This document shows positions 8 through 34,270 of a DNA stretch of 43,457 nucleotides, piece after piece (position 1 is the first letter of the stretch; every line of letters begins with the position of its first letter). The translations under genes were made by a program, and so were the position numbers. The notes below the pieces were generated by a model. That model was not told the origin of the DNA and searched no databases. It worked only from the letters and a program-made list of their open reading frames with translations. Source of the stretch: Escherichia phage JL1; the sequence record JX865427; one strand, written 5' to 3'.

Positions 8-1393
8 TTAGTAGAAGTCTACGGTTGGAACAACGGCGATCGGACGAATCACAGGGAACAAGTGCGCAATAGGGTAGCCTGCCGCGTCATTCATGTGGTC
101 CACACCGGCAGTTTTATCCGGTTCGCCTTTCTTCAGGTCGTACACCTGCTGTTCCAGGCATTTCGCTAGTGTAGGGCATTTATCCAGGTTGACAAAATAC
201 TGGCGCACGCCCTTCGAGTTGCACATCATCGTATTCATCGCGATAAGTCTGTCTTTCACAGGTGGGTTAACGCTGTCATACTCCACCTCGAAGCCCGCGT
301 CTTCCAGTTGTGCGATATCGGACGACGACGCGTTGACCGTCTTGCGGGATTTGCCGCTGCTATCCGGGTAAACGACAACACGACCGGCAGCACAATGATC
401 GGGGTAGCGCTCCTCGATCGCCTCAATCATAGCCGGGGTATCAAACAGGTCCACGAATTCATCCACCGCGTGAATCTCGTCGCGGAACTCCCTGTTCTCG
501 GTGACTCGCTGCCGTCTGACGTACACGACCGCCGCCATTTTCGTGACGTTAAAGTCCATACCGATAATCAGCGTGTCTTCCGGCTGCACTTCTTCGGTGC
601 TGGCGTTCTCCTCGCGGTTGAACATCTTGTACACCGCGCCCGACGTAAGGTTAACAAACAGGCCGTTCAGGTACGCATCGATCAGGTTAGTCGGGTACTG
701 ACTGCGCAGCGTGTCGATAAAGTCTGCCGGTAAATGGTGGTTGTCCGTGGTCTTCGCCCGGATCAGGCGCTTCTGGCTACCCTTCTCCACCTCGAAAATT
801 TGATACATCGCCCGGTAGCCTTCCGGCGTGGACACGATGACAAACTGGCGGACGAAGCCCGCGCGCAGACGACCGAGCAATTTGTGGTATGCCGCCATTG
901 CGACGTCTTGTTTCGTGGTGTCGAACTCGTCGGCAACAATCCACGCGGCGTTGACCCCGATCAGGCGGGTATAGTTCTCCATTGATTCACAGATAACGCG
1001 AGTCCATTTGCCTTTCACCAGCACGTTATAGATCTTGTCCTGCTTATTGAACTTCCACCGGAATCCGGCCTCGTCGAATGCCTTCTCCAGTTCCGGATAC
1101 ATGATTTTAACCAGGAGTGGAATAGTCGGTTCGGTCACGATGCCGTCATAACCAGGGTTAAGTGTCAGAAGCTGGATGACCTTACGCGCAGCTACCCACG
1201 ACTTGCCACCACCGAAGCCGGAACACAGGCCGAGGATTTTAGTCTTCGTGTCGCGCAGTAGTTCAACCTGGTGCGGCAAGCAATCAGGCTGGTAAATGCG
1301 GACGGCCTGCGCAACGCGTGTGGGGCGTGGCGGTCGGTTGCGCTTTGCGATCGCGCGTTCCAGTGCGCGGTGTTCTGCCGCATAGTTACGCAT
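8..1393 (-). CDS. terminase large subunit
   Basis: 461 aa; Walker A-like GFGGGKS near N-terminus; ATPase plus nuclease-length architecture; start overlaps upstream small-subunit stop (ATGA). Confidence 0.9.
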   Translation of the reverse strand: MRNYAAEHRALERAIAKRNRPPRPTRVAQAVRIYQPDCLPHQVELLRDTKTKILGLCSGFGGGKSWVAARKVIQLLTLNPGYDGIVTEPTIPLLVKIMYPELEKAFDEAGFRWKFNKQDKIYNVLVKGKWTRVICESMENYTRLIGVNAAWIVADEFDTTKQDVAMAAYHKLLGRLRAGFVRQFVIVSTPEGYRAMYQIFEVEKGSQKRLIRAKTTDNHHLPADFIDTLRSQYPTNLIDAYLNGLFVNLTSGAVYKMFNREENASTEEVQPEDTLIIGMDFNVTKMAAVVYVRRQRVTENREFRDEIHAVDEFVDLFDTPAMIEAIEERYPDHCAAGRVVVYPDSSGKSRKTVNASSSDIAQLEDAGFEVEYDSVNPPVKDRLIAMNTMMCNSKGVRQYFVNLDKCPTLAKCLEQQVYDLKKGEPDKTAGVDHMNDAAGYPIAHLFPVIRPIAVVPTVDFY

Positions 1394-5894: not shown

Positions 5895-6221
5895 TTATTT
5901 CGCAAGCTGGGCGAATAGCTCACGCTGGGCTTTAATCCGGGCAACGTTTGTCACTGCCGTCTCGCCGATTCCGAAGCGATACGCCAGGCGTTCACGGGCA
6001 AATGCAAGCGCGTAGTCCTGGATAGCGTTCGCCAACGGCTGGATCTCCGCCATCGTGTCGAAGCTGCGCTCAAGCATACAGGAGATGGCCTGCTGCGTGA
6101 CGCGAACAACGGACCACGCTGCCGCTAGTCTTTCGACCGCTTCCGCTCCTTCACCGGCGAACTCCGCCGCTTCTTGTGCCGCCGCCATAGCCATTGCGTA
6201 ATTCCAGATAATTGCTTTCAT
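5895..6221 (-). CDS. hypothetical protein (Ala-rich)
   Basis: 108-aa ORF; start overlaps upstream stop (ATGA coupling). Confidence 0.5.
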   Translation of the reverse strand: MKAIIWNYAMAMAAAQEAAEFAGEGAEAVERLAAAWSVVRVTQQAISCMLERSFDTMAEIQPLANAIQDYALAFARERLAYRFGIGETAVTNVARIKAQRELFAQLAK

Positions 6222-6397
6222 AGTTCCGTAACCCTCTCAACCAGTTTATGCCCTAAACGATAGCTGTCGCCCCAAAGTAGCAGGCCCATAAATTCATCGA
6301 TGCTAAACGCTCGCCTGCACACAGTGCGAAGCTCCCCGTTGTGGACTACCGTATCGCCGATCTTGATTTCGTGCTTATCAACCATTTCGGTTTTCAT
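6218..6397 (-). CDS. hypothetical protein (59 aa)
   Basis: Start moved to internal ATG (MKTEMVDK) preceded by AGGAGGG RBS and a near-consensus promoter. Confidence 0.5.
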   Translation of the reverse strand: MKTEMVDKHEIKIGDTVVHNGELRTVCRRAFSIDEFMGLLLWGDSYRLGHKLVERVTEL

Positions 6398-6424
6398 GTT
6401 CCGCCCTCCTGTTGGTGTGCAACC

Positions 6425-6453
6425 AATATAGCAGGGTGCCGGGGTGGATGCAA
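6425..6453 (-). promoter_or_regulatory. sigma70-like promoter TTGCAT-17-TATATT
   Basis: Read on minus strand; -35 embedded in ATTGGTTGCAT, second ATTGGTTGCA copy immediately after -10; ~20 nt upstream of RBS/ATG at 6397. Confidence 0.55.
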
Positions 6454-6612
6454 CCAATATTAATCACGCGCATGAAAAAGTTGATCGCTATCTGCTGTGA
6501 CTGCAAATTGCATTTTTCGCCCCACGTTCTGCATCTTGCATTGGTTGCCTAGTTCAGCGACGACCGCAATCCGCAACATGCTGCCGTATATTTTGCAATC
6601 CCGGATTTTATG

Positions 6613-6783
6613 CAGTCTCAGACGAGGGGGGTGACAGACCCCCCGTCTAGTCTGAAAGACTGGGAGTTGTCCCGCCTGTCCCGCTCCCCGCCAGGCCGCG
6701 TAATCCGGGGCGGGACAGGGGTGCTGTCCCGCCTTGTCCCGCCCCTGGTTTGTCCCGCTTTTTGTCCCGCTTACTTTATGCAG
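6613..6783. repeat. structured iteron element, copy A (52-bp hairpin module + 7 TGTCCCGC octamers)
   Basis: 52 nt identical to 33957-34008; contains G6/C6 hairpin, agtct-gaa-agact hairpin, octamers in both orientations including palindrome GGGACAG-N5-CTGTCCC. Confidence 0.8.
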
Positions 6784-6876
6784 TTTTATTGCATAACTAT
6801 GCATTATATTCACACTACACGGCAACCAATGCGACCAGCTAAAAGCACACAAAATGGCAACCAATGCGCGCAAAAT

Positions 6877-9141
6877 TTAATCTTTCAGGTCATCATCTGT
6901 CGCAGAAAGCGTGATGGGGATATCCGATTTGATGACTAAATTCGACGACCCATATATGGCCCCGGTGTGCGGATCTGTATAGAAACCAATCACGCCGCGC
7001 TCGACCATATCGTCGATTGCCTTCGTCGAAGTGCCACCCTTAGCGAGTCCCGCCTGGCGGACAATTGCCGATTTACTGAAACCAGTATGGTCCGGGTTAT
7101 CTTCCATCAGTTTTTCCAGGGCCGCATAGAGCACTTTCTCTTTTTCGTTGCGCGGACCGGCGGCGTTTTCCTCCTTAACCGCTGCTTTGCCCGCGGCCTT
7201 CGCCTGTTCTATAGCGAACGGAGCCAGGGCGACCGGAACGAGGTATAAAGTCTCGTCGCGTGGCGTGGACGCAATTGGTTTGACGTCCCAACCGGCAACA
7301 ACGTCTCCGAAGTCCGGCCCGGTGCTGGTGGACTGGTGCGCCTCGAACGCTTCTGACTTGCGGAGATCCACCTTCACCTTGCACTTGAGCAAGACGAAGC
7401 CACGCGGCGCTTGCTTGATGCCGTTACGTGATTTTTCGTGATACAGGTTAAGTTGTCCCGGCTGGTTGTCGTCCGGTTGTTCCAGGAAGAACGCAGAATC
7501 AACAGCACCATGCAGCGCACCGGATCCGCGTGGGGTTCTGCTGCCGTTTGCACCTTTCGCGGGGTGGTGGATGACGCCCGCACTGCCACCTGTATTTTCC
7601 GCAATGGCTTTCAGCGCTTTGACCACTTCACCCATATCGCTGGCGTTGTTCTCGTCGAACGGTTTAGCCTCGGCGGACCGCAGCGCAACAGTCTGGTTGA
7701 GTGAGTCGAACGCCACCAGGCCAACTGGTTCGCCGTTAGCGGTGCGGTTGATGAAGCTGATAACTTCGCGCAAGCCGGATTTGCTGGTGATATCCCAGCC
7801 GCGTGATTGCAGATCGATAATGTGCAGCTTGTCCAGGTCGTGCTCGTATTTAATCTGCAATGCTTCTTTACGCTGATTTGAGGCTTCGCCACCTTCCGCA
7901 TCGAAATAGAAGCAATGCGACTGGACTACCTTCGCACCACCAAACGGAATACCAGCGGCAACCGCACCCATCTGCCCCAGCACATAGAAGGACTTGCCGA
8001 TGTTCGACTCGCCCGCCATATACCAGGTCGATTTAAAGTTAATCAGACCTTCGATGATCGGGTCGTGTTTACTGAATAGTGCGACCGGCTCGTTATCCAG
8101 ATCCGCATCGGTGCACACGCCGTATTCTTCGCCGTCACCAACCGCATCAACAATATGCTCGTATAAGGATTCGACTTCCTCGTCGTCCAGCCCCGGCAGG
8201 ATGGCGGCGATTTGCTTACGGGACATATTGTGTGGCTCGACGTTCAGGTGGTCCGGGATACCTATAAGACGTAGCGCCAGGTGCTGGTGTCTATTCAGTT
8301 CCGAGCAACACTCGTTGCCGGTGTGCATACACTTGAAACGGATCTCGCCATCCTTGACCATGATAGCCGTTGACCCTTCGCCGCTGTGCAGATGTTCGTT
8401 CGGGCACGGCACTTCATAACCGCGACCGGACGACAGCGGTTCGAATCCTGCCTGGAAGCACCAGTCCAGAATACCGTCCGCCACTGCGTCGTCGCCCTGG
8501 GTAAGCTCGCGGCGTACTTCCTCCTTCTCCACCCCCAGCTTGTCCGCCAGGCGCAGCAGACGACGCACACTGGCGCGCTTGCCGTGGTGGCACTTAATGA
8601 CAGACTGCTGGTGTGGTAGGTACATAAGACGGTTTGTGTCTTTCGTGCAGTCGTCGAAGTCCACATCCGACAGACCAAGTTGGTGTAATAGAGCATACTG
8701 GACACGGCCCAGGTCTTCCGCCGGGACAGGCTTATCAGTGAGCACCAGGAAACGGGCGCAACGCGTTCCGCCCTTCAGCGGGTGGCGGTCGCCGGTAGTG
8801 GTGTGGAATACGTGCTCCAGCCCCGCGTCGATGAAAGCCTTACGGCAGCGGCGTAAAGTGCGGGTGTCGGTGCGGTCAATATCGAAGAACAGGATCGAGC
8901 GGTCCACCGCACTGGTCTTACGACGCAATCCGTCACTGGTATACGCCACGATGCCGTCGGCCTTACGCTTGCGGCGCGCATACTCGGCTTTATCTTCTGT
9001 CTTGTTGATATGCACCGAGGAGATTTCTTTCGCATCTTTGATAAATTCGAAAAATTCATCGGTGGTCATCTGGAAGTTTTCCGCCCTGGCTTTTTCGCCT
9101 TTTTTAGCGGGTCGTGTTACAGCGAATTTAATTAAGCTCAT
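6877..9141 (-). CDS. DNA primase / RecA-family replicative helicase fusion
   Basis: 754 aa; Walker A GESNIGKS in central ATPase domain, N-terminal primase-like region, C-terminal putative DNA-binding region. Confidence 0.8.
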   Translation of the reverse strand: MSLIKFAVTRPAKKGEKARAENFQMTTDEFFEFIKDAKEISSVHINKTEDKAEYARRKRKADGIVAYTSDGLRRKTSAVDRSILFFDIDRTDTRTLRRCRKAFIDAGLEHVFHTTTGDRHPLKGGTRCARFLVLTDKPVPAEDLGRVQYALLHQLGLSDVDFDDCTKDTNRLMYLPHQQSVIKCHHGKRASVRRLLRLADKLGVEKEEVRRELTQGDDAVADGILDWCFQAGFEPLSSGRGYEVPCPNEHLHSGEGSTAIMVKDGEIRFKCMHTGNECCSELNRHQHLALRLIGIPDHLNVEPHNMSRKQIAAILPGLDDEEVESLYEHIVDAVGDGEEYGVCTDADLDNEPVALFSKHDPIIEGLINFKSTWYMAGESNIGKSFYVLGQMGAVAAGIPFGGAKVVQSHCFYFDAEGGEASNQRKEALQIKYEHDLDKLHIIDLQSRGWDITSKSGLREVISFINRTANGEPVGLVAFDSLNQTVALRSAEAKPFDENNASDMGEVVKALKAIAENTGGSAGVIHHPAKGANGSRTPRGSGALHGAVDSAFFLEQPDDNQPGQLNLYHEKSRNGIKQAPRGFVLLKCKVKVDLRKSEAFEAHQSTSTGPDFGDVVAGWDVKPIASTPRDETLYLVPVALAPFAIEQAKAAGKAAVKEENAAGPRNEKEKVLYAALEKLMEDNPDHTGFSKSAIVRQAGLAKGGTSTKAIDDMVERGVIGFYTDPHTGAIYGSSNLVIKSDIPITLSATDDDLKD

Positions 9142-16411: not shown

Positions 16412-16437
16412 AATACGGCGGGCTTGTCCCGCCATTT
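16412..16437 (+). terminator. putative terminator/attenuator
   Basis: Stem ggcggg / cccgcc followed by ATTTTT. Confidence 0.4.
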
Positions 16438-19112: not shown

Positions 19113-19117
19113 ATTGG

Positions 19118-19146
19118 TTGCATAACCGTATTGGTTGCATTATATT
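19118..19146 (+). promoter_or_regulatory. promoter TTGCAT-17-TATATT with tandem ATTGGTTGCAT motifs
   Basis: Two direct copies of ATTGGTTGCAT, one forming the -35 and one abutting the -10. Confidence 0.55.
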
Positions 19147-33888: not shown

Positions 33889-33949
33889 TATGCAGTCCCC
33901 CTTTTTATGCAGTTGCCGTCGGTCATTGTATCAGCGAATTTAAAACAAA

Positions 33950-34270
33950 CCTTATTCAGTCTCAGACGAGGGGGGTGACAGACCCCCCGTCTAGTCTGAA
34001 AGACTGGGCTTTGTCCCGCCTGTCCCGATCGGCTAAAACCCGCGGCAGCACTGGCGGGGACAGGGGTGCTGTCCCGCTTTGTCCCGCCCAATTCTGTCCC
34101 GCTTTTTGTCCCGTTTGTTTTATGCACGAAAATCGAATAGATATTCACATTTTGGGGGCGGGACAAAGCGGGACAGCACCCCTGTCCCGCTTTTAATTTA
34201 TGCAATGAAAGTGAGTATATATGCGGTTTAGTGGTGGCGGGACAAAACGGGACGTCCCGCCTGTCCCGCT
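33950..34270. repeat. structured iteron element, copy B (52-bp hairpin module + ~14 TGTCCCGC octamers)
   Basis: 52 nt identical to 6613-6664 plus homologous octamer array; extra inverted octamers; fills the ~385-bp gap between the GT stop and the tape measure start. Confidence 0.8.

Follow-up and report, generated by a model that had tools for sequence, protein, structure and literature searches.

Some proven origins of replication lie just 3′ of a helicase-initiator gene, a layout that the locus described here matches (PMC9371898, PMC4234260). In SaPIs, which are pathogenicity islands of Staphylococcus aureus, the C-terminal winged helix of Rep reads 6–12 short (5–6 nt) iterons immediately downstream of rep, iterons of opposite orientation surround an AT-rich centre in the origins, the Rep/ori specificity is particular to each island and, in SaPI5, a primase is fused to Rep (PMC9371898). 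The alpha protein of phage P4 unites a Toprim primase, a superfamily 3 (SF3) helicase and a C-terminal winged-helix origin binder in one polypeptide (PMC4234260). At oriV of RSF1010, the RepC iterons lead to unwinding by the RepA helicase, and this exposes the ssiA/ssiB hairpins, recognized by RepB′, a primase of the archaeo-eukaryotic primase (AEP) type (PMC4234260). Finally, in pRN1 (ORF904), as in the Bordetella phages BIP-1/BPP-1, a small helix-turn-helix (HTH)/repressor gene precedes a gene encoding an AEP prim-pol, a helicase and a winged helix; the pRN1 helicase belongs to SF3 and its origin, a long stem-loop just downstream of the replication gene, is reported without iterons (PMC4234260). 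Here we analysed Escherichia phage JL1 (sequence record JX865427), an E. coli siphophage of the genus Dhillonvirus. The window, that is the whole stretch of 43,457 nucleotides (43.5 kb), is an almost complete genome. It contains two loci that associate an AT-rich block, an array of short iterons and a palindrome, one directly after the primase-helicase gene (locus 1, 6613–6815) and the other in the tail operon (locus 2, 33957–34269). We consider it fairly probable that each locus is an iteron origin for a self-loading primase-helicase, whose DNA-binding tail most likely docks at the repeats to start genome replication.

The customary map orientation of these phages is the minus strand of the window, on which the primase-helicase gene is read (6877–9141; open reading frame of 754 aa, PHROG 3228 ‘replicative helicase-primase’). 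Followed in gene orientation, locus 1 begins after the stop codon and two CGCATTGGTTGCC boxes, 35 bp apart (6820–6868), with an AT-rich block (6771–6815; GTGAATA..TTATGCA..CTGCATAAA), a candidate DNA-unwinding element, and continues with the octamer array (6668–6770) and an imperfect palindrome of 52 nt, the module (6613–6664). The array occupies positions 107–209 and the module positions 213–264 past the stop codon. An earlier note on this DNA had placed the element about 100 bp past the stop, the module coming first and the octamers next; the distance is right (107 bp to the array edge), but for a gene on the minus strand the array precedes the module. The components that the note listed, two inverted repeats, seven octamers and the palindrome GGGACAG-N5-CTGTCCC (6711–6730), are all present. 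Copies of the octamer TGTCCCGC start at 6668, 6677, 6725, 6735, 6751 and 6763 on the plus strand, and one lies on the minus strand at 6710–6717. Read in gene orientation, they form four direct CGGGACA (spacing 12, 16 and 10 bp) and one inverted copy, then a variable spacer of ~25 bp and two further direct CGGGACA; the iterons stand on one side of the AT-rich block only. The window holds 17 exact copies of TGTCCCGC against 2.03 expected, a number reached by none of 100 shuffles, and 16 of the 17 sit in two clusters. One copy stands outside both clusters (16425–16432), among the small genes that separate the DNA polymerase from the second helicase; since chance alone predicts ~2 copies, it needs no special explanation.

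As single-stranded DNA, the module folds best into one long imperfect hairpin, whichever strand is considered (ΔG ∼−15 kcal/mol, z ∼−3.5; none of 200 shuffles was equally stable). The two separate hairpins announced by the earlier note, a G-rich one formed by GACGAGGGGGG...CCCCCCGTC with one A bulged (6621–6648) and AGTCT-GAA-AGACT (6650–6662), have the expected arms but are an alternative pairing. Close relatives differ by 1-nt indels inside locus 1; hence the mechanical reading frames at 6460–6873 (minus strand) and 6610–6939 (plus strand) are spurious and the region is non-coding, as the note had it. The CGCATTGGTTGCC boxes belong to a genome-wide motif, are missing at the second locus and are probably regulatory, outside the duplicated core. 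We rejected a DnaA-box reading of TGTGAATAT/TGTGAATAG, and their match to the consensus TGTGNAWAA at 8 of 9 positions is kept as a remark only.

The primase-helicase itself is composed, in this order, of an AEP primase, an AAA_25 helicase, a predicted winged helix in the C-terminal part and an acidic tail. The AlphaFold model of aa 1–345 (pLDDT 85.6) has as its best Foldseek match the AEP domain of the cyanophage S-2L PrimPol (6zp9, E 1e-5), followed by matches to the LigD polymerase domain and Prim-PolC; this assignment fits the invariant DxD, histidine and Cys/His positions of the N-terminus, which is thus predicted to be an AEP-type primase-polymerase with a zinc motif. Pfam recognizes a helicase of the RepA/RecA type (AAA_25, aa 357–531, E 2.4e-19), and the sole sequence match of the protein in the PDB, a weak one, is RepA of RSF1010 (1g8y). 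The model of aa 600–754 is confident only over aa 664–739 (pLDDT 77–89), where it shows an H-H-H-β-β succession. The top Foldseek matches of this part in the PDB are all winged-helix DNA binders (MarR/MexR/PcaV, LexA, histone H1 and the winged helix of ORC), and we propose the predicted winged-helix domain (aa ~664–739; 6925–7152, minus strand) as the reader of the iterons. The protein ends with an acidic stretch, ..ATDDDLKD (6880–6903, minus strand), which is kept as ..DDDL.D in all relatives; it resembles the acidic C-terminal tails of T7 gp4 and gp2.5, which contact the DNA polymerase. When a plasmid collection was searched with the protein, the only full-length match was a 44-kb phage-like record, and there is thus no plasmid replicon to serve as a functional precedent.

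How does this system compare with the four described above? Like the SaPIs, it has 7–16 iterons after the open reading frame, a predicted winged-helix tail, an AT-rich block and repeat words that are specific to each lineage. Where SaPI origins have at least six short repeats directly downstream of the helicase gene, JL1 has seven TGTCCCGC; the oppositely oriented iterons around an AT-rich region are seen in locus 2, while locus 1 is one-sided. In contrast to SaPI Rep, an AAA+ protein with an SF3/MCM-like helicase, the JL1 enzyme carries AAA_25, of the RecA/RepA type. Neither a long palindrome beside the iterons nor a second distal copy has been described for SaPI origins, whereas both are found here, in virulent siphophages of Gram-negative bacteria that possess their own DNA polymerase. 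The origin of P4 reportedly carries octamer repeats, direct and inverted, with a second cis site, crr, kilobases away (Ziegelin and Lanka). Similarly, the same octamer occurs in JL1 at two sites 27 kb apart. The analogy with P4 put forward in the earlier note gains from this distal array, which the note had overlooked (33957–34269), but does not extend to the enzyme, which is no homologue of P4 alpha: the primase is of the AEP and not the Toprim type, the helicase of the RepA/RecA and not the SF3 type, and no sequence homology is detectable. The second site also differs from crr in being a full duplicate, AT-rich block and palindrome included. With RSF1010, the JL1 system shares a predicted winged-helix reader, a RepA-like helicase and an AEP primase, together with iterons and a hairpin-forming palindrome, but the three proteins that are separate in RSF1010 are fused here in one chain, and the RSF1010 iterons are ~20-mers, compared with 7–8-mers in JL1. 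The likeness to pRN1 is one of anatomy only, that is an HTH gene, an AEP-helicase-winged-helix gene and a stem-loop of ~50 bp at most 265 bp downstream, with iterons being dominant in JL1 and the helicase not of the SF3 type. The system works like these four kinds of replicons but is a member of none of them.

Natural recombinants among the more distant relatives indicate that the tail of the enzyme and the repeats belong together. We compared JL1 with Klebsiella phage 37P2, Enterobacter phage phiEap-2, Salmonella phage SE1 and contigs of IMG/VR (Guernseyvirinae and kin), whose primase-helicases are 37–49% identical to that of JL1. Two of these relatives, L075 and L076, are 99% identical over the N-terminus and the core of the protein and only 47% identical over the last 100 aa, and their iterons are CGGACA and CCGACA, respectively. 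Likewise, L062 and L079 on one side and L070 and L072 on the other share 94–98% identity elsewhere but 44–47% in the tail, and carry GGGGGAGA versus CGGACA. Pairs with the same iteron keep a tail identity of at least 58% even when the core has fallen to 73–85%. At the DNA level, both recombinant pairs diverge over a block that starts some 360 nt before the stop codon and reaches some 240 nt past it (−360 to +240), and that thus includes array and palindrome as well as the codons of the tail. In JL1 and 37P2, where a further array is found at a distance of 27 kb and 9 kb, respectively, this distal array carries the word of its own genome. Judged from these alignments, the repeat word co-varies with the last ~120 residues of the protein in two independent pairs of recombinants, a co-variation that supports a cognate specificity between tail and iterons. 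The earlier note had also named the HTH regulator as a candidate binder. This protein, encoded upstream of the primase-helicase, is HTH_23-like in Dhillonvirus and is replaced by a non-homologous Cro-like protein in Guernseyvirinae, where the layout of the array is kept; it is therefore unlikely to be the conserved reader, and the primase-helicase is the conserved candidate.

The element is conserved within the genus. A BLAST search with a 501-bp query around the element matched 157 phage records at 76–95% identity, which we count as the Dhillonvirus records (other members of the genus are HK578, SSL-2009a, EK99P-1 and Sodalis phage SO-1), and the array follows the gene in all 157. To describe its anatomy, we aligned 34 copies from both loci of 17 Dhillonvirus genomes. 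In gene orientation, the consensus copy starts with the AT-rich block GTGAATA..TTATGCA..TGCATAAA, which is conserved at both loci in the 17 genomes, and proceeds with four direct CGGGACA (12, 16 and 10 bp from start to start), a degenerate inverted copy, a spacer of ~25 bp whose sequence is specific to locus A or B, two more direct CGGGACA and the palindrome CAGTCT-TT-CAGAC-TA-GACGGGGG(G)-loop-CCCCCC-T-CGTCTG-AGACTG, after which comes (C/A)ATAA. Over the 34 copies, the majority base accounts on average for a fraction of 0.95 in the columns of the direct iterons, 30 of these 42 columns being invariant, versus 0.82 in the spacers (Mann–Whitney p ∼1e-6). The stem of the hairpin is preserved, whereas its loop is free to vary (TCAATGG, TCAGCGG, TCTGTCA, TATTGT). 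An iteron is found in the loop of phiEap-2-like and CCGACA-type phages (tcTGTCCGa, tcTGTCGGa); we did not retain this as a general rule, since most Dhillonvirus loops are TCAATGG, TCAGCGG or TATTGT.

Beyond the genus, the array is present after the gene in 20 of 26 more distant relatives. The layout common to Guernseyvirinae (primase-helicase 43–49% identical) places, directly after the gene, the same AT-rich units, direct and inverted short repeats and a long palindromic module. More precisely, a first group of three or four direct and one or two inverted repeats is separated by a spacer from a second group of two or three direct ones, behind which the palindrome lies. The AT-rich block consists there of two GTGAATAGTTATGCA-like units despite different iterons, the words being specific to each lineage (CGGACA, CCGACA, GGGGGAGA, GGGATA, GGGGAT and TCGCAA). 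The arms of the palindrome change in a compensatory way: the AGTCT-type arms exist in four versions (AGTCT/AGACT, TCATC/GATGA, TCCTC/GAGGA and CTCCT/AGGAG), all perfectly complementary, and the G-rich/C-rich arms in six or seven versions across lineages, with complementarity retained. Complementarity was read from an explicit arm-by-arm table, the MAFFT alignment of the module being out of structural register between lineages.

The second locus of JL1 lies between the tail-chaperone and tape-measure genes, in a gap of ~380 bp that is unusual for a siphovirus tail operon. Its module (33957–34008) is 100% identical to that of locus 1, its array (34012–34114) is alignable with that at 6668–6770, and the two loci can be aligned in the same orientation over ~175 bp. 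The AT-rich block (34115–34152) has oppositely pointing iterons on both flanks (plus strand, 34070–34114; minus strand, 34158–34175). Two extra iteron sets are proper to locus 2, one at 34158–34190 and a palindromic one at 34237–34269, separated by a second AT-rich stretch; they are also found in HK578, SO-1 and Ioannina. Altogether, nine TGTCCCGC lie within 34012–34269, compared with the seven at 6668–6770. A search of Rfam with the large palindrome at 34067–34178 returned sub-threshold, generic hairpin matches only. An extended −10-like sequence, TGATACAAT (33925–33933, minus strand), stands just past the second module, ~40 nt before the ATG of the tape-measure gene; the sequence recurs in HK578, SO-1 and Ioannina, and the tail genes may have an internal promoter here.

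Duplication is the rule in the genus, with both copies in all 157 records. BLAST placed the element 348 times over these 157 records in total, and at least twice in each of the 50 that were drawn from the whole ranking; an exact-pattern scan of IMG/VR matched 16 Dhillonvirus contigs, 14 with two matches and 2 with one. The same two loci had been noticed in the orthologous genome of SO-1, whose GenBank record (GQ502199) annotates them as repeat_region ‘region A’ (our locus 2) and ‘region B’ (our locus 1), with ‘direct, inverted and palindromic repeat sequences’ and a mutual sequence similarity; this is a database note only, and we found neither an analysis that goes with it nor any comparison beyond the genus or mention of the primase-helicase tail. 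In the literature on SO-1, Dhillonvirus members, Jerseyvirus/Guernseyvirinae and the octamer itself, we found no paper describing the element. Orthologous copies (A–A and B–B) are 89.4% identical versus 82–83.5% for paralogs, implying that the duplication predates the genus and that the two loci are old paralogs, separately maintained. Within a genome, A and B are only slightly more similar (83.5%) than between genomes (82.1%), which indicates weak gene conversion between the copies. Outside the genus, 37P2 has an independent second copy, 9 kb away, between head-morphogenesis and spanin genes. Guernseyvirinae have a second repeat-rich intergenic region beside the spanin genes (L006:11501–12153; L008:5477–5826; L005:1572–1856); it is a GGAATAA/TATTCCA cluster in phiEap-2 and Shashou, and the site of the second iteron cassette in 37P2.

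The analysis shows the anatomy of the loci, that they are conserved and duplicated, the folds of the domains and the way in which word and tail co-vary. From these findings we infer binding, unwinding, priming and origin activity: a tail predicted to bind DNA in a sequence-specific manner, repeats that change with this tail, and an adjacent AT-rich block and hairpin-forming palindrome together point to an origin, which was also the proposal of the earlier note and is the best-supported reading on comparative grounds. The process might run as follows. Firstly, the C-terminal winged helix of the primase-helicase would read the CGGGACA iterons. Secondly, several bound molecules would build a ring of the RepA-type helicase on the AT-rich block, the enzyme loading itself with no separate loader. 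Thirdly, unwinding would allow a hairpin to form, on a single strand or on the two, from the imperfect palindrome of ~50 bp beside the array, and at this hairpin the N-terminal AEP primase would begin DNA synthesis. Finally, synthesis would be handed over to the family-A DNA polymerase of the phage, which the acidic C-terminal tail may recruit. The two loci (6613–6815 and 33957–34269) would both be origins, or else an origin and a distal cis-acting partner, as ori and crr in P4.

Several points weigh against an origin. The tail and the nearest array are adjacent, and a single recombination could have exchanged the two together even if they had nothing to do with each other in function. Against such an effect of mere linkage speak only the distal copies, which may themselves have arisen simply by duplication of the proximal one. 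Six relatives with a similar C-terminus (L063–66, L068 and L071), all of them metagenomic, have no array within 650 bp downstream of the gene. In phiEap-2 and SE1, the only copy is the one behind the gene, which implies that a system of this kind can do without a second one. For the winged helix, the fold search gave weak E-values, none better than 7.5e-3, and the origin-binding domain of P4 alpha is absent among the top 50 fold matches. The GC skew changes only at gene-strand changes, marks neither locus and is uninformative about an origin, and we found no paper on binding or origin activity for these phages. Lastly, both loci are inside transcribed regions, where a transcriptional role is possible.

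Such a role is the main rival of the origin, although we regard it as unlikely. The arrays would be operators or roadblocks for a phage regulator, be it the HTH protein or, in the part of a repressor, the winged helix, and would time the read-through from the early genes into the small-gene/lysis operon at locus 1 and from the chaperone into the tape-measure and other tail genes at locus 2, while the palindrome, structured as RNA or as DNA, would cause transcripts to be paused or processed. The position of both loci at operon joints, between co-oriented genes, agrees with this, as do TGATACAAT before the tape-measure ATG, one iteron palindrome that the annotators of HK578 marked as a terminator and the regulatory-looking ATTGGTTGC motif in the neighbourhood. 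In locus 1, however, the scans yielded neither a sigma-70 promoter nor an intrinsic terminator above threshold, and the terminator scan found no terminator-like site on either strand of 6200–7000. The sequence that follows the GC-rich hairpin, TGAGACTGCATAAAA in gene orientation or TAGTCTGAAAGA on the plus strand, has no T-run, and the module is not an intrinsic terminator; the sole terminator-like site of locus 2 is antisense to the genes. Moreover, the repeat word tracks the tail of the replication enzyme and not the HTH protein, and the location of the second copy depends on the lineage (the chaperone/tape-measure gap here, the head-morphogenesis/spanin gap in 37P2).

A structured RNA, for example one that governs processing or stability, signals antitermination or serves as a protein sponge, is a still weaker candidate, and a rather improbable one. 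Both copies are oriented as the surrounding genes, and the palindrome is more stable than its shuffles and has co-varying arms, all of which would fit an RNA. Yet the palindrome folds equally well on both strands and the repeats occur in both orientations, as expected of sites on duplex DNA; no match at gathering level to Rfam 15 was obtained in the whole window, the loci giving only sub-threshold hairpins resembling microRNA precursors; and an RNA function leaves unexplained why the repeats are linked to the helicase's winged helix. We give very little credit to a selfish or neutral repeat, that is a small mobile or recombination-spread element with no phage function: there are two copies, independent second copies stand at different sites in two lineages and the within-genome identity is slightly higher than the between-genome one, but the positions are fixed in all 157 Dhillonvirus records, the orthologs are closer than the paralogs as expected of old and separately maintained copies, the iterons are more conserved than the spacers, and neither target-site duplication nor transposase is associated. 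Equally hard to credit is a packaging (an option also listed in the earlier note), partition or DNA-organising site, pac-like or centromere-like, for the small terminase subunit or another protein, of which short repeats in both orientations are typical, as the loci are ~4.6 kb and ~11 kb from the terminase genes, the genome has two copies in the same orientation and the word co-varies with the primase-helicase tail.

Returning to the origin reading, we also considered, as a tentative extension that may well prove wrong, that the Dhillonvirus genome is a two-site replicon built around one self-loading, tri-functional enzyme (AEP primase, SF4/RepA-type helicase and winged helix), with hairpin priming and a portable cassette. 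If so, the tail-operon copy would be a second or even the main bidirectional origin, or alternatively a crr-like partner, as in P4, that loops to the copy behind the gene, and the conserved palindrome would be a hairpin priming signal read like the ssi sites of RSF1010. The association of winged helix, iterons and palindrome would then be a specificity cassette exchanged among virulent phages, defining replicon groups on which it would depend if relatives that infect the same cell are able to use, or to titrate, the initiator of the other.

What is new here is the second copy in the tail operon, the occurrence of the layout in two phage groups with different words, and the natural swaps of tail plus array as one cassette, which make the origin hypothesis directly testable and provide ready-made specificity controls. 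The origins of virulent non-model coliphages have almost never been mapped, although therapy and collections such as BASEL commonly include Dhillonviruses and Guernseyvirinae. If an origin were defined together with its cognate tail, it would be of use in phage engineering, for origin-based interference plasmids, conditional replication or minimal replicons, and an initiation system compacted into one protein, with reader, helicase and primase in one chain, is attractive for biochemistry. The copy in the tail operon raises the question of whether some lytic phages need two initiation sites, or an origin enhancer.

Around the primase-helicase gene, the map-orientation order is as follows: the small HTH gene (9481–9152, minus strand; Pfam HTH_23, sigma-70 region-4-like), directly upstream and in the same operon, the primase-helicase gene (9141–6877), the non-coding region of ~470 bp, small genes, then the lysis genes, the terminase genes (1393–2043 and 8–1393, minus strand) and the structural genes. 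The first ~200 residues of the primase-helicase (AEP domain; 8540–9141, minus strand) are 41–78% identical to those of HK578 (L004:36014–36620), compared with 95–100% for the rest; this is a second mosaic joint in this gene.

The ATTGGTTGC/GCAACCAAT motif occurs 14 times in the window versus 0.5 expected (3380, 5689, 6419–6458, 6540, 6822–6865, 9673, 16171, 19113–19138, 20663, 23751 and 39843). Its copies are almost all intergenic, often in tandem pairs, and several read ‘ATTGGTTGCAcaccaaca’ right before a ribosome-binding site. Guernseyvirinae have an analogous GTTGGCTG/CAGCCAAC motif at equivalent places, and the JL1 motif is probably a genus-wide promoter or operator. In L071, one of the metagenomic relatives, an intergenic stretch (L071:6930–6980) is a perfect tandem repeat, (GGCAGCAT)x6. 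Finally, two records labelled ‘Campylobacter phage A144’ (MG065648.1) and ‘Acinetobacter phage NJ01’ (OQ221563.1) are 92–94% identical to this Dhillonvirus region; their host labels seem doubtful, possibly through contamination or mislabelling.

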